This document shows, piece after piece, positions 22,620 to 28,546 of a DNA stretch of 39,408 nt (position 1 is its first letter; each line of letters starts with the position of its first letter). The notes beneath the pieces were generated by a model. It saw only the letters and a list, made by a program, of their open reading frames with translations, ran no database searches and was not told where the DNA came from. Source of the DNA: a virus (lineage: Duplodnaviria > Heunggongvirae > Uroviricota > Caudoviricetes). Both the position numbers and the translations under genes were made by a program. Location of the stretch: IMG/VR virus record IMGVR_UViG_2917849834_000006, positions 1-39,408 of that record. One strand, 5' to 3'.

Positions 22620-23065
22620 CGGATTTTAGTCTGGATTTTTCTGGCCTGGCGGATATTGCAAGAGATCTGGAACTTCTCAGCAGAGCAGAGAGTAATAAGG
22701 TGCTTCGCGATGCCTCCCGTGCCGGTGCAGAGGTTATCCGGGAGGCGGTTATTGACCATGCGCCAGAGCTAACCGGAAAACTGAAGAAAAACGTGGTTAT
22801 TCTGACTCAGCGTTCACGGCGTCGTGGTGAAATTATCTCTGGTGTCCACATTCGTGGGCGGAATCTGCGAACCGGAAACAGTGATAACAGCATGAAAGCC
22901 AGCGATCCGCGAAACGCGTTTTACTGGCGTTTCGTGGAGCTGGGGACTATCAATATGCCTGCCCATCCGTTCATTCGCCCGGCCTTTGATATGACAGAGG
23001 AGCTGGCAGCACAGGTTGCCATGAAGCATATGAATCAGGCTATTGATGGGGTGCTGAGTAAATGA
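22595..23065 (+). CDS. HK97 gp10-family neck protein
   Basis: Size and position; overlapping coupling. Confidence 0.65.
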   Translation: MQPERWNVTDFSLDFSGLADIARDLELLSRAESNKVLRDASRAGAEVIREAVIDHAPELTGKLKKNVVILTQRSRRRGEIISGVHIRGRNLRTGNSDNSMKASDPRNAFYWRFVELGTINMPAHPFIRPAFDMTEELAAQVAMKHMNQAIDGVLSK

Positions 23066-23406
23066 GAGAAGCCACGCTGTATGCTCTTCTGTCCAAACTG
23101 GCCGGAGGGCAGGTTTATCCTTATGTGGTCCCGCTGACGGAGGGAAAGCCTGCGGTATTTCCACCATGGCTGGTGTTTTCAGTGGTGTCTGACATCGCGT
23201 CTGATGTGCTTGATGGTCAGGCTGAATCCAGAATCACAGTGCAGATTGATATCTGGGCAACGGCTCCTGATGACGCAGATGATATCCGTGAGCAGGCGCT
23301 TGATGCGGTAAGGGAACTGGCACCATCCGTTATTTCTAAAACTCAGGGTTATGATCCTGATTCCCGTCTGAGCAGAGCTACGCTTGAATTTCAGGTAATT
23401 GCCTGA
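23062..23406 (+). CDS. Tail terminator-like protein (DUF3168-like)
   Basis: Size and position immediately before the major tail protein. Confidence 0.6.
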   Translation: MREATLYALLSKLAGGQVYPYVVPLTEGKPAVFPPWLVFSVVSDIASDVLDGQAESRITVQIDIWATAPDDADDIREQALDAVRELAPSVISKTQGYDPDSRLSRATLEFQVIA

Positions 23407-23426
23407 GGTTGTTAATGATTTTACCC

Positions 23427-23465: not shown

Positions 23466-24170
23466 ATGTCCTCTAATTTTGAACGTTCTCAGCAGACCAA
23501 AGTCATGATCTCGTCTGCACCGGTAACGGCAGAAACGCTGAGTTCTGCCAGTTTTCTTGAACTGAGCTGTACGATTAAAGAGGTTCAGTTTACCGCCGGG
23601 CAGAAACAGGATATTGATGTCACTACGCTGTGTTCTACCGAGCAGGAGAATATCAACGGTCTTGGGGCTGCTTCAGAGATTTCCATGTCAGGAAACTTTT
23701 ATCTCAACGCTGCCCAGAACGCGTTGCGTAGTGCTTATGACAACGACACCACATACGGTTTCAAAGTTATTTTCCCGTCAGGAAATGGATTTACCTTTAT
23801 GGCAGAAGTTCGCCAGCATACCTGGTCTGTGGGAACCAACGGTGTTGTTGCTGCCACATTTTCCCTGCGCCTGAAAGGAAAGCCCTCTCTGACCACTGAA
23901 CCTTTGAAACTCCTCTCTGATTTGAAAAGTACACTACAGGTTTCTGCCAGTGAAACGCTGAATATGTCTGTTGAGGCATCAGGTGGTGTGCCTCCTTATT
24001 CATATGTCTGGAAGAAAGGCAGCTCTCCAGTTTCCGGGCAGACATCGGCAACTTTCAACAAGGCCTCCGTGACATCCGGAGATGCCGGTGCGTATACCTG
24101 TGAGGTTTCTGATTCAGCAAGCCCGGTTAATAAGGTGACCTCCACTTCCTGCACCGTAACTGTCAGTTAA
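23466..24170 (+). CDS. Major tail protein with C-terminal Ig-like domain
   Basis: ATG at 23466 after AGGAG; C-terminal Ig-like segment (…GGVPPYSYVWKKG…GAYTCEVSD…). Confidence 0.85.
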   Translation: MSSNFERSQQTKVMISSAPVTAETLSSASFLELSCTIKEVQFTAGQKQDIDVTTLCSTEQENINGLGAASEISMSGNFYLNAAQNALRSAYDNDTTYGFKVIFPSGNGFTFMAEVRQHTWSVGTNGVVAATFSLRLKGKPSLTTEPLKLLSDLKSTLQVSASETLNMSVEASGGVPPYSYVWKKGSSPVSGQTSATFNKASVTSGDAGAYTCEVSDSASPVNKVTSTSCTVTVS

Positions 24171-24175
24171 GGAGG

Positions 24176-24556
24176 ATGAAATCTATGTCTAAAAATATCC
24201 GCAATCTGGCACTGGCGACGATGTCTGGTTTTCGCCACAAAACAGTTGATGTTCCTGAGTGGGAAGGTACAACGGTTGTATTACGGGAACCCTCTGCAGA
24301 AGCCTGGTTACGTTGGCAGGAGATCGTTAAAACCGGAGATGATGATACACCGTTATCAGTTGCGGAGCGTGCCCGCCGAAATCTGGAAGCGGATGTTGAA
24401 CTGTTCATCGATGTTCTGTGTGATACCGGGATGCAACCCGTGTTTTCAGCGGATGATCGGGAGCAGGTACTTGCAGTATATGGTCCGGTACATGCGCGAC
24501 TGCTTCGTCAGTCACTGGAACTGATCACTGATGCTGAAGTTATTAAAAAAAAGTAG
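24176..24556 (+). CDS. Tail assembly chaperone (gpG-like)
   Basis: Position before the tape measure; ends at a slippery A-run. Confidence 0.75.
   Translation: MKSMSKNIRNLALATMSGFRHKTVDVPEWEGTTVVLREPSAEAWLRWQEIVKTGDDDTPLSVAERARRNLEADVELFIDVLCDTGMQPVFSADDREQVLAVYGPVHARLLRQSLELITDAEVIKKK
24545..24553 (+). other. Programmed -1 ribosomal frameshift site (AAAAAAAAG) joining the G-like and T-like chaperone frames
   Basis: The -1 frame is open from 24547 through 24858; conserved G/GT arrangement upstream of tape measure genes. Confidence 0.65.
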
Positions 24557-24858
24557 CACTTCCGGGTATTCGTTTTCTGATGATGCTGGCGCTCAGGATG
24601 GGGCGCACATTGTCAGAGTTACGCCGGGAAATGTCTGCATCGGAAATCATGATGTGGGCAGAATTTGACAGGATCAGCCCGCTGGGTGACGAGCGGGCTG
24701 ATATCCGGGCTGCCCAGATAGTTTCTGCAGTTTACGGGGCGCAGGGTGTCAAAGTTCCACTGAATGAAGCGATTCTTCAGTGGGAGGTCGTTCCTGCAAA
24801 TAATATTAAAGATCCGTTCACAGCGTTTGAAAATGCATTATTTGCAGCGACACAATGA
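24547..24858 (+). CDS. Tail assembly chaperone gpT-like extension (made as a G-T fusion by -1 frameshift)
   Basis: ORF in the -1 frame relative to G with no independent RBS. Confidence 0.7.
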   Translation, partial: KKVALPGIRFLMMLALRMGRTLSELRREMSASEIMMWAEFDRISPLGDERADIRAAQIVSAVYGAQGVKVPLNEAILQWEVVPANNIKDPFTAFENALFAATQ

Positions 24859-24913: not shown

Positions 24914-25258
24914 TTGATGGAAGTTATTCTTATTGCGCTAGTCCTGGGGTTAATTCCGGCTATTATCGCGCAAAGTAAAGGGCGTTCATTTTGGGGATGG
25001 TGGATATACGGAGCCTTACTCTTTATCGTTGCCCTAGTTCATTCACTTGTAATCCAAAAAGATGAAAAAACGCATGAGCAACAAATGGTGAGCAATGGCA
25101 TGAAAAAATGCCCTTACTGTGCGGAGTTGATCAAAGAAGAAGCCATTAAGTGTAAGCATTGCGGTAGTGATTTAACACATAACCCTGATAGTACCGTTTC
25201 GCAAAAAACGGATGATGAATATCTTGAAGAAGCAAGGCGTAAGGCTGGGCTTCTTTAA
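24914..25258 (+). CDS. Moron: small membrane protein with C-terminal zinc-ribbon (CPYC…CKHC)
   Basis: Low-GC insert between the chaperone and tape measure genes with its own AT-rich upstream region, RBS and terminator; two N-terminal TM helices. Confidence 0.55.
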   Translation: MMEVILIALVLGLIPAIIAQSKGRSFWGWWIYGALLFIVALVHSLVIQKDEKTHEQQMVSNGMKKCPYCAELIKEEAIKCKHCGSDLTHNPDSTVSQKTDDEYLEEARRKAGLL

Positions 25259-25262
25259 AAGC

Positions 25263-25289
25263 AAAAACCGCTTCGGCGGTTTTTTTTTG
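25263..25289 (+). terminator. Rho-independent terminator after the moron
   Basis: AACCGC-ttcg-GCGGTT followed by T9. Confidence 0.7.
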
Positions 25290-25303: not shown

Positions 25304-28300
25304 ATGGCGTCACTACGCGAACTGATTATAAAAATCTCGGCAAATTCGCAGTCATTCCAGTCAGAAATTGCGCGAGCTTCACGTATGGGACAGGAGTACT
25401 ACCGTACCATGCAGAACGGAGGTCGACAGTCTGCAGCTGCATCCCGTGATATGCGGCGAGCACTGGCAGAAGTGACCGAGCAGATAAATACGGCGAAGTC
25501 TTCGGCAATGAATATGGCTGGCGCATTTGCCGGTGCTTTTGCCACTGGACATCTTATATCTCTTGCGGATGAATGGAGCTCAGTAAATGCCCGTCTGAAG
25601 CAGGCCACGCAGTCCAGCGATGATTTCCAGGCATCACAGCGCGAATTAATGGCGATCAGCCAGAGAACGGGTACTGCTTTTGCTGATAACGCCAGTCTTT
25701 TTGCACGTTCGGCTTCTTCCATGCGGGAATATGGTTACAGATCTGAGGAAGTACTGAAAGTTACCGAGGCCATTTCTACAGGATTGAAATTGTCCGGAGC
25801 CAGTTCTGCGGAAGCCAGCTCGGTGATCACTCAGTTCAGCCAGGCACTGGCGCAAGGGGTTCTGCGCGGTGAAGAGTTTAATTCAGTAAATGAAAGCGGT
25901 GATCGTGTTATTCGTGCTCTGGCTGCAGGAATGGGGGTTGCCCGTAAAGATCTGAAGGCAATGGCGGATGATGGAAAGCTGACCGCCGATAAGGTTGTTC
26001 CTGCACTGATTAGCCAGCTTGGTACGCTGCGGGATGAATATGCAGCCATGCCTGATACCGTATCATCCTCTGCAACCAAAGTTGAAAACGCCTTTATGGC
26101 CTGGGTTGGTGGTGCGAATGATGCCAGCGGTGCAACGAAAACGCTTACCGGAATAATGAATGGTGTTGCGAATAATATTGATACGGTTGCCACGGCGGCG
26201 GGAGCTCTGGTTGCAATTGGTGTAGCCCGATATTTTGGCAATATGGCGTCTTCTGCGGGCTCTGCAACTGCCGGGTTAATTACTGCTGCCAGAAACGAAG
26301 TGGCTCTTGCTGAGGCACAGCTCAGAGGGACACAGATAGCAACAGCCAGAGCGCGGGCGGCATTGTATCGTGCGCAGCAGGCGGTTGTGGCTGCCCGTGG
26401 TACAGAAAAACAGGCTGCAGCAGAAGCGAAACTGGCAACCGCACAGGCTTCACTTACCCGTAATATTGCTGCCAGAACAGCGGCACAGGCAACGCTGAAT
26501 AACGTTACGTCAGTTAGTAGTCGGTTGTTAAGCGGTGCTCTGGGGCTGGTTGGTGGTGTGCCTGGACTTGTCATGCTGGGGGCGGCGGCCTGGTACACAA
26601 TGTATCAGAACCAGGAGCAGGCCAGAGAATCAGCGCGTCAGTATGCCGCAACAATCGATGAAATTCGCCAGAAAACGTCTGCAATGTCACTTCCTGAAGC
26701 GGCAGATAATGAGGAAAAGACGCGGCAGGCTCTGGAGGAGCAGAACAGGTTAATTGACGAGCAGAAAAGTAAGATTAAATCCTTACAGGAAAAAATTGCT
26801 GGCTATCAGTATGTCCTGGCAAACCCGGGCTGGACAACCGATAACGGTTTTATGATTAACCACATGACGTCGGTGAAAACTGTCACAGAAGGGCTTGCAG
26901 AAGCAACAAGTCAGCTGGCTGTTGAGCAGTCCCGACTTTCCGGAATGCAGGAAAAAGCCCAGTCAATCCAGGATGTGCTTGCCGGGCTGGAAGAACGACG
27001 AGTGGCGCTGATCCGCCAACAGGCAGCGGAACAAAACAAAGCATATCAGTCATTACTGATCATGAATGGCCAATATACCGAGTTTAATCGTCTTCTTGGG
27101 CTTGGTAATGAATTACTTCAGCAGCGACAGGGGCTGGTGAATGTACCGTTACGGCTGCCACAGGCTGCTCTGGATGATAAACAGCAGAACGCGCTGAATA
27201 ACACTGAGCGAGAGCTGACCTTATCCCGTCTGAAGGGGGAAGCGCGTGAGCGTACTCGTCTGGGCTATGTAGCGGATGATCTCGGTTTTGTGGGGGATGC
27301 CTATCAGACGGCAAGGCAAACTTATATCAACAACGCGCTGGAAGCATGGCGTAACAACCAGGCGAATAAGCCAAAGGTACGTGGTGGAAAATCGGAAGCA
27401 GAAAAAACGGAAGATGCTTATAACAGACTGATTAAACAACAAAAAGAACAAATAGCACTGGCAGGACAGAATACTGAACTGGCTAAGATGAAATACCAGG
27501 TCAGCCAGGGCGAATTATCAACCTTATCAGAAGCGCAGAAACAAACCCTTTTACAGAATGCAGCACTCATCGACCAGAAAAAAATTCGTGAGCAAATTGC
27601 TGCTTATGAAAGCAGCCTGGCGGACAGTAACGCCAGTGTCAGGGCATCAAATGAGGCTCAGTTGTTAGGGTATGGAGACGGAACACGAATACGTGAGCGG
27701 CTTCAGGAAATGTGGAACATCCGACAGGAGTTTGAGCAGAAAAATAATGAGTTGCTGAGACAGTACCAGACCGGAGAAATCGAAGAAGCCCTGTGGAAAC
27801 AGGAAAAAACGCTGAATGAAAAATATCTGGAGGAGCGTCTCAACGATCAGCAGGATTATTATGCAAAGGCCGATGCTTTACGCAGTAACTGGAATGCCGG
27901 GCTCAAAGAGGGGCTGACGAACTGGGCAGACAGTGCCACTGATTATTCTTCACAGGCGGCAGACGTGGTCGTTTCCACTATGGATGGTCTGGTTTCAAAT
28001 ATTTCCGAGGCACTGGCCGGAAACGTTGTGGACTGGAGAAACTGGGGGAGTTCGATCCTTCAGGAAGTTTCAAAAATCCTGATGAACGTGGCCATTGTTA
28101 ACGGGCTGAAATCACTCTCCGGGACAATGTCGGGAGCGGGGGGATGGATTGGTAGTGTTGGCGACTGGCTTTCCGGTGCAGTAGCGAACGCAAAAGGCGG
28201 TGTTTACACATCGGCAAATCTGAGTGCTTACAGTAACACCATTGTGGATACGCCGACGTACTTTGCTTTTGCGAAAGGTGCCGGGCTGATGGGGGAAGCC

Positions 28301-28546
28301 GGACCTGAAGCTATCATGCCGCTTACGCGGGCGGCGGACGGTTCTCTTGGGGTCAGGGCTATTGGCAATGTGAATGGTGGTGGCGGATTTGTCTATTCTC
28401 CCGTGTATCACATCAATATTCAGAATAAAGGGAGCAATGGCGAGATTGATACGCAGTCAGCCAGGGGGCTGGTGGATCTGATCGACAGCAGGGTTGTGTC
28501 AATTATGCAGTCATCACGTCGGGACGGAGGATTATGCAGTGCCTGA
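25304..28546 (+). CDS. Tail tape measure protein
   Basis: 1080 aa, Ala/Gln-rich coiled-coil, position before M-L-K-I-J. Confidence 0.9.
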   Translation: MASLRELIIKISANSQSFQSEIARASRMGQEYYRTMQNGGRQSAAASRDMRRALAEVTEQINTAKSSAMNMAGAFAGAFATGHLISLADEWSSVNARLKQATQSSDDFQASQRELMAISQRTGTAFADNASLFARSASSMREYGYRSEEVLKVTEAISTGLKLSGASSAEASSVITQFSQALAQGVLRGEEFNSVNESGDRVIRALAAGMGVARKDLKAMADDGKLTADKVVPALISQLGTLRDEYAAMPDTVSSSATKVENAFMAWVGGANDASGATKTLTGIMNGVANNIDTVATAAGALVAIGVARYFGNMASSAGSATAGLITAARNEVALAEAQLRGTQIATARARAALYRAQQAVVAARGTEKQAAAEAKLATAQASLTRNIAARTAAQATLNNVTSVSSRLLSGALGLVGGVPGLVMLGAAAWYTMYQNQEQARESARQYAATIDEIRQKTSAMSLPEAADNEEKTRQALEEQNRLIDEQKSKIKSLQEKIAGYQYVLANPGWTTDNGFMINHMTSVKTVTEGLAEATSQLAVEQSRLSGMQEKAQSIQDVLAGLEERRVALIRQQAAEQNKAYQSLLIMNGQYTEFNRLLGLGNELLQQRQGLVNVPLRLPQAALDDKQQNALNNTERELTLSRLKGEARERTRLGYVADDLGFVGDAYQTARQTYINNALEAWRNNQANKPKVRGGKSEAEKTEDAYNRLIKQQKEQIALAGQNTELAKMKYQVSQGELSTLSEAQKQTLLQNAALIDQKKIREQIAAYESSLADSNASVRASNEAQLLGYGDGTRIRERLQEMWNIRQEFEQKNNELLRQYQTGEIEEALWKQEKTLNEKYLEERLNDQQDYYAKADALRSNWNAGLKEGLTNWADSATDYSSQAADVVVSTMDGLVSNISEALAGNVVDWRNWGSSILQEVSKILMNVAIVNGLKSLSGTMSGAGGWIGSVGDWLSGAVANAKGGVYTSANLSAYSNTIVDTPTYFAFAKGAGLMGEAGPEAIMPLTRAADGSLGVRAIGNVNGGGGFVYSPVYHINIQNKGSNGEIDTQSARGLVDLIDSRVVSIMQSSRRDGGLCSA

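Follow-up and report, generated by a model that had tools for sequence, protein, structure and literature searches.

Tail module and the G and T reading frames

The window, that is, the whole analyzed stretch of 39,408 nt from a tailed-phage record (IMG/VR IMGVR_UViG_2917849834_000006), was searched against Pfam, and its genes were compared with the RefSeq annotation. All features described below lie on the plus strand. A HK97-gp10-like gene, a tail-completion gene and a lambda-like major tail tube protein gene (23466-24170, RefSeq coordinates; Phage_TTP_11/12 and Ig_2/Ig_3 matches) are followed by a gene for a G-like tail assembly chaperone (24185-24556), a T-like reading frame extending to 24858, an additional ORF, the tape measure protein gene (25304-28546, 1080 aa; Phage_HK97_TLTM at 6e-92, TMP_3 and Tape_meas_lam_C) and lambda M-like genes. 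The tail tube protein carries an in-frame C-terminal Ig-like domain (Ig_2/Ig_3) at residues ~175-252, counted on the ORF that starts at 23409.

The G protein matches Phage_TAC_1 (PF06222) with an E value of 3.4e-57 and 192.2 bits against a gathering cut-off of 25, over model positions 1-124 of 124. Its translation had been taken to begin at ATG 24176. The downstream ATG 24185 is the likelier start, being preceded by AAGGAGG, the strongest Shine-Dalgarno (SD) sequence of the module (-12.1 kcal/mol), and being the one used by RefSeq. With this start, G has 123 aa and a fusion of G with T would have 224 aa.

The T part comprises 101 codons in the -1 frame relative to G (24553-24858, ending with TGA 24856-24858). 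The product of the -1 frame matches Phage_tail_T (PF06223), the family of lambda gpT, at 3e-17 and 63.3 bits against a cut-off of 25.9; the match covers model positions 1-72 of 73 and residues 30-101 of the product.

The additional ORF between T and the tape measure gene (24917-25258, 113 aa) has a Zn_ribbon_3 match, a hydrophobic N terminus and a GC content of 36-41% compared to ~50%, and lies outside the frameshift cassette. The preliminary description had placed G and T upstream of the tape measure gene, which is right as to order, but T does not adjoin that gene because this ORF intervenes. It is absent from phage Evi, and a different small gene (gp15-like) occupies the same slot in HK97-like phages. 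A terminator-like hairpin at 25263-25284 immediately follows the ORF, and in Evi-type relatives the same hairpin directly follows T. The ORF looks like a moron-type cargo insertion. A 1.25-kb query that included it was covered to at least 80% in only 43 of the 901 matching E. coli genomes.

Sequence and geometry of the slip site

Bases 24539-24556 read GTT ATT AAA AAA AAG TAG in the frame of G, whose C terminus is accordingly ...AEVIKKK*. Base-by-base reading thus bears out the earlier statement that the G-like ORF ends in A AAA AAA AG followed by TAG. A run of eight A occupies 24545-24552, with G at 24553; it would also be the substrate for transcriptional slippage, a competing explanation considered below. 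The slippery heptamer A_AAA_AAG lies at 24547-24553 in the X_XXZ_ZZN phase, with two lysine codons for the P and A sites, and the 0-frame stop adjoins it.

The codons of all three frames were read across the region. From 24547, the -1 frame runs AAA AAA GTA GCA CTT CCG GGT ATT CGT TTT CTG ATG ATG and onward to TGA 24856-24858, so it is open into T as described before; immediately upstream it is closed by TAA 24544-24546, the upstream limit of the region in which G can be joined to T. The overlap between this TAA and the 0-frame TAG 24554-24556 is only 7 nt, and the heptamer fills all 7. It therefore sits inside the only three-codon stretch in which slipping back by one base would connect G with T. 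The junction peptide predicted earlier, ...AEVIKKKVALPGIRFLMM..., is the correct one for a -1 shift on A_AAA_AAG 24547-24553.

When all X_XXY_YYZ heptamers were phased in the 42 plausible genes of the window (~11,500 codons), the copy at 24547 was the sole in-phase A_AAA_AAG. As a bare string on both strands of the window, AAAAAAG was not enriched (14 found versus 9.2 ± 3.0 expected), and the site is special by its phase and position only, not by string count. One other in-phase X_XXA_AAG heptamer was found, G_GGA_AAG at 23142-23148 in the tail-completion gene (23062-23406), which is identical to the lambda G/GT site. A shift there would merely truncate the protein, and this heptamer is probably incidental since its -1 frame ends after 14 codons.

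Comparison across related loci

Seventeen G homologs were aligned and used to collect 50 loci from bacterial genomes and 80 from IMG/VR, to which three annotated loci were added. In each locus G, the G stop codon and the frame of the T homolog were located, giving 85 distinct loci from Escherichia, Pectobacterium, Brenneria, Serratia, Morganella, Proteus, Providencia, Yersinia, Kosakonia, Pantoea, Erwinia and other genera. In 80 of the 85, T occupies the -1 frame and the overlap contains an A_AAG in the proper phase. The full A_AAA_AAG is present in ~50 of these 80 and A_AAA_AAA in two more, and in 78 of the 80 the shift motif closes with AAG, the rarer lysine codon.

The position of the motif relative to the G stop codon differs between lineages. 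A_AAA_AAG with the stop adjoining was found in Escherichia, Pectobacterium, Brenneria, Symbiopectobacterium, Serratia, Morganella, Proteus, Providencia, Yersinia, Kosakonia and Buttiauxella, and the heptamer stands 12 or 24 nt before the stop in some Serratia-type loci. The two loci with A_AAA_AAA have TAG next. Thirteen loci have a tetramer only (GCA_AAG, GTA_AAG or GAA_AAG; L007, L021, L024, L026-L031, L034, L044, L051 and L053, with the G stop region at ~2360-2400 in each). A stop codon follows 0-1 codon after the tetramer in 13/13 of them, which hints that the stop codon may be part of the signal. In about 20 loci of the HK97 type (HK446 and Enterobacter prophages), the corresponding sequence is CGG_GAA_AAG, located 15 nt upstream of the stop; it does not form a canonical X_XXY_YYZ heptamer.

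Five of the 85 loci depart from the arrangement (L023, L038, L078, L116 and L016), the first four by the length of the A run. With the seven A of L078 (at 2360) and L116 (at 2360), the reading of G continues through 37 codons of the +1 frame. Nine A in L038 (at 2353), from the degenerate genome of a Symbiopectobacterium symbiont, and six A in L023 (at 2376), where relatives have seven, both produce an in-frame G-T fusion. The A9 variant of L038 may be real; many of the variants in A-run length are likely homopolymer sequencing errors, because several of the extended proteins carry further indels. The fused or extended G proteins P0002, P0005 and P0094 were rejected as natural fusions on account of further indels and noisy assemblies. 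A conserved product of the +1 or -2 frame was also rejected: the open stretch of the +1 frame is 37 codons long in the E. coli clade and ranges from 3 to 37 codons elsewhere, so a +1 product is not conserved.

Candidate stimulatory elements

Upstream of the heptamer, the best pairing with the anti-SD sequence was -0.5 kcal/mol (22 nt upstream), compared to a mean of -3.6 in the coding background, and thus no SD-like stimulator was detected there. A dnaX-like upstream SD element was discarded as well: the GAGGT of relatives with 89% identity is separated from the heptamer by only 4 nt and lacks conservation.

Downstream, a hairpin of 26 bp with bulges is predicted at 24560-24629 and begins 6 nt past the heptamer. 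For the segment 24554-24660, folding gave a z score of -4.1 against shuffled sequences, and the 76-nt segment from 24554 is among the most stable 2% of all 76-nt segments of the 39-kb window. Several of the 25 most stable 76-nt folds of the window start at 24627-24676, in the part of T at 24627-24750 that follows this hairpin, with energies down to -39.5 kcal/mol; structure is thus unusually abundant in the coding region of T. In a subclade (nine sequences), RNAalifold predicted a 16-bp core at 24575-24618 with two covarying pairs; one change from AUG to GCG (Met to Ala) is matched by the synonymous change of ACA UUG to ACG CUG. Across 22 diverse relatives, RNAalifold predicted no pairs. When the minimum free energy structure of the window was imposed on the alignment of these relatives, 66% of it was paired with weak covariation, and the outer helix was paired in only 40% of cells. 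The invariance of the apical helix is accounted for by the conserved peptide ALRMGR, which it encodes.

On this modeling, the hairpin is a possible frameshift stimulator, and it might equally well be a mask over the ATG of T that occludes initiation. The claim of a proven stimulator was dropped, given the lack of a consensus across the 22 relatives and the coding explanation for the apical helix. In the cluster headed by ECs1801, a hairpin was predicted in 85% of the members with a 5-nt spacer, although it was no more stable than its surroundings (difference 0.02) (Sharma et al. 2014).

Proposed recoding and competing explanations

A programmed -1 ribosomal frameshift yielding a 224-aa G-T fusion is, in our judgment, the very probable explanation. 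That this is the conserved G/GT frameshift of the tail chaperones, as the preliminary description proposed, is supported by the protein families, the synteny, the arrangement in 80 of 85 loci, the linker described below, the joined CDS of HK446 and the ECs1801 case. Most ribosomes translating G would read AAA AAG and terminate at TAG 24554, releasing the 123-aa chaperone. A minority would slip back by one base with the single E. coli tRNA-Lys species on AAA in the P site and AAG in the A site; both tRNAs would re-pair with AAA AAA, and decoding would continue with GTA GCA CTT to TGA 24856. The predicted fusion has the junction ...EVIKKK/VALPGIRFLMM.... If the two products act as gpG and gpGT do in lambda, the tape measure protein would be coated by G in many copies and by G-T in few, with the T domain bringing in the tail tube protein, and both G and G-T would be left out of the virion.

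T could also be made alone from ATG 24580 or ATG 24583, for example by re-initiation after TAG 24554, with the heptamer being incidental. This is the course of the RefSeq and GenBank annotation, in which T is a separate CDS; ATG 24580, the first canonical start, lies 24 nt downstream of the G stop codon, close enough for coupling, and is invariant in 22 diverse relatives. Its invariance is, however, explained by the methionine of the conserved F-L-M motif that it encodes. The 21 nt upstream of it pair with the anti-SD at only -3.8 kcal/mol, compared to -6 to -12 kcal/mol in most neighboring genes, which places T among the weakest of the module and supports the earlier statement that it has no ribosome-binding site of its own; both ATGs are, moreover, buried in the predicted stem. 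The nine codons that link the slip site to the ATG (24553-24579) are free of stops in the -1 frame in every one of the 80 loci with T in that frame, and their variation is unlike that of an untranslated spacer. In the 22 relatives, their column entropy is 0.62, 0.73 and 1.18 at -1-frame codon positions 1, 2 and 3, the same pattern as in the body of T (0.78, 0.37 and 1.17), and the peptide V-(A/K)-x-P-G-x-x-F-L-M is kept through synonymous changes. Because the variation falls mainly on third positions of the -1 frame, this comparison argues that the linker is translated in the -1 frame as part of the fusion. In lambda, Levin et al. in 1993 reportedly saw no free T made. An incidental heptamer also sits poorly with the strong avoidance of in-phase A_AAA_AAG in E. 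coli genes (z = -10.1; PMC4066793 Table S3). Synthesis of T solely on its own, with no fusion that matters, is very unlikely, although some independent or re-initiated T may be made.

Two further explanations lead to the same product. RNA polymerase could add one A on the run of eight at 24545-24552, and a message with nine A would encode the identical ...IKKKVALPG... protein. For E. coli RNA polymerase to slip efficiently, a run generally has to be at least 9 long. Variants with six, seven and nine A do occur among database relatives, although these are DNA-level changes or sequencing errors, and transcriptional slippage is known in some IS elements, Thermus dnaX and Shigella spa13 (PMC5009743). 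The 13 tetramer-only and ~20 HK97-type loci, however, keep the G/T geometry with runs of only 3-4 A, too short for polymerase slippage to be expected, so the family-wide mechanism cannot depend on a long homopolymer, and the AAG codon found in 78 of 80 loci is predicted by ribosomal slippage of tRNA-Lys and not required by the polymerase. Transcriptional slippage as the main route is therefore highly improbable. Alternatively, a single tRNA-Lys on AAG in the P site, with the slowly decoded TAG in the A site, could slip to AAA so that GTA is read next, making the first four bases of the heptamer dispensable. Such shifty stops are a described phenomenon (Weiss et al. 1987, as cited in PMC5009743), and Z_ZZN tetramers promote -1 shifts in E. 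coli (PMC4066793). The TAG directly 3' of the heptamer in the window and the 13 distinct tetramer-only relatives, all with a stop 0-1 codon later, agree with it. In other relatives A_AAA_AAG stands 12 or 24 nt and the HK97-type GAA_AAG 15 nt before the stop, so the family as a whole does not depend on an adjacent stop, and the retention of the full heptamer in most clades suggests that tandem slippage matters. Single-tRNA slippage, which is highly improbable, would be a variant of the programmed ribosomal frameshift with the same product and the same site, and not a separate explanation.

Within the programmed -1 frameshift, the adjacent stop codon may help the shift, to judge by the relatives with a tetramer plus stop. 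A broader proposal, speculative and on balance unlikely, would make the stop directly after AAG a working part of the signal (a -1 shifty stop) in this HK97-type chaperone family, with lineages moving between the heptamer and the tetramer plus stop (GCA_AAG_TAA). The hairpin of the subclade would then block internal initiation and not act as a stimulator, and the eight A would add transcriptional slippage in the clade of the window.

The efficiency of the shift is probably between 0.3% and a few percent. In E. coli, A_AAA_AAG gave 0.29% without a stimulator, 4.3% with the IS911 stimulator and 39% with the IS3 pseudoknot; the lambda heptamer G_GGA_AAG gave 0.28% unstimulated, and its stimulated values were almost identical to those of A_AAA_AAG (PMC4066793 Table S3). 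Since no SD-like stimulator was detected and the hairpin is kept only in the subclade, the efficiency could be as low as the unstimulated 0.3%. Because the two heptamers are nearly equal in slipperiness, a low-percent yield near the ratio of lambda, where G:GT is ~30:1 and the function has been described (PMC5009743), is plausible.

Relation to known frameshift systems

The phenomenon is already known as the G/GT frameshift (Levin et al. 1993; Xu et al. 2004), found here in the HK97-type protein family. Several features are shared with lambda gpG/gpGT: the major tail gene and the tape measure gene flank two small ORFs, the second of these occupies the -1 frame and is entered through an X_XXA_AAG heptamer located close to the 3' end of the first, the T part belongs to PF06223, and the heptamers are equally slippery (0.28% in lambda and 0.29%). 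The second ORF has no initiation signal of its own in lambda and a weak SD sequence in the window. In contrast to lambda, the heptamer is A_AAA_AAG and not G_GGA_AAG, the G protein belongs to PF06222 (HK97 type) and falls outside the lambda gpG family, the stop adjoins the heptamer, the overlap is only 7 nt, and an extra gene precedes the tape measure gene. The lambda frameshift is said to have been treated in studies by Levin, Hendrix and Casjens in 1993 and by Xu, Hendrix and Duda in 2004, 2013 and 2014.

HK97 gp13/gp14 and the corresponding genes of HK446, HK544, HK106 and mEp234 show the same families and -1 arrangement, their G being 66% identical to that of the window, and these HK97-like phages likewise have a small extra ORF (gp15 type) between T and the tape measure gene. 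They differ in the slip region, which is CGG GAA AAG 15 nt before the G stop, without a canonical heptamer and without the eight A. In the HK446 record, the homologous pair is entered as one joined CDS with the description "similar to HK97 gp14".

Closer to the window is ECs1801/ECs1802 of E. coli O157 Sakai prophage Sp9 and Stx phages, with a G protein 69% identical. It ends, like G of the window, in AAA AAG TAG, with A_AAA_AAG directly before the stop (AGA AAA AAG TAG in ECs1801); the preceding codons are GCC AGA instead of GTT ATT, giving six A instead of eight, and no Zn-ribbon ORF follows T in that locus. ECs1801 heads the cluster A_AAA_AAG_25 of 53 genes, listed as a true frameshift case and corresponding to GeneTack cluster 10 (Sharma et al. 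2014). The homologous site is therefore already catalogued; the clade of the window itself is ~30% diverged from it.

With E. coli dnaX and the elements IS911 and IS3, the window shares A_AAA_AAG decoded by a single tRNA-Lys and has a predicted stem-loop ~6 nt downstream. Cassettes of the dnaX/IS911 type call for an SD-like element 6-17 nt upstream of the heptamer and a conserved stable structure that begins 5-9 nt downstream. Unlike dnaX and IS911, the window has no upstream SD-like stimulator (-0.5 kcal/mol), and its hairpin is not demonstrably selected. The outcome also differs, as dnaX gives a truncated product at 1:1, whereas the shift here would give a C-terminal extension, presumably at a low level.

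Distribution and annotation

The window comes from an E. coli prophage. A 1.25-kb region of it is present with at least 99% identity in 27 complete E. coli genomes and with 80-90% identity in ~870 more. RefSeq annotates only 24580-24858 for T, as a separate "tail assembly protein T", and omits the G-T fusion; in RefSeq/PGAP and in several GenBank phage records, separate CDSs are given for the G and T of this clade of prophages. The 224-aa fusion is therefore missing from the protein databases, and the start of T in them is doubtful. The main value of the finding lies in annotation, where the only gap relative to known biology is found; biologically it is one more case of a textbook recoding event. 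The series of heptamer, tetramer plus stop and HK97-type GAA_AAG could be used to test the minimal requirements of a -1 signal in enterobacteria. In one record, L001 (ON470580.1, 1584-2257), the G/T region is annotated as three overlapping "tail assembly chaperone" CDSs, the middle one of which spans the slip site in the +1 frame and is almost certainly an annotation artifact.
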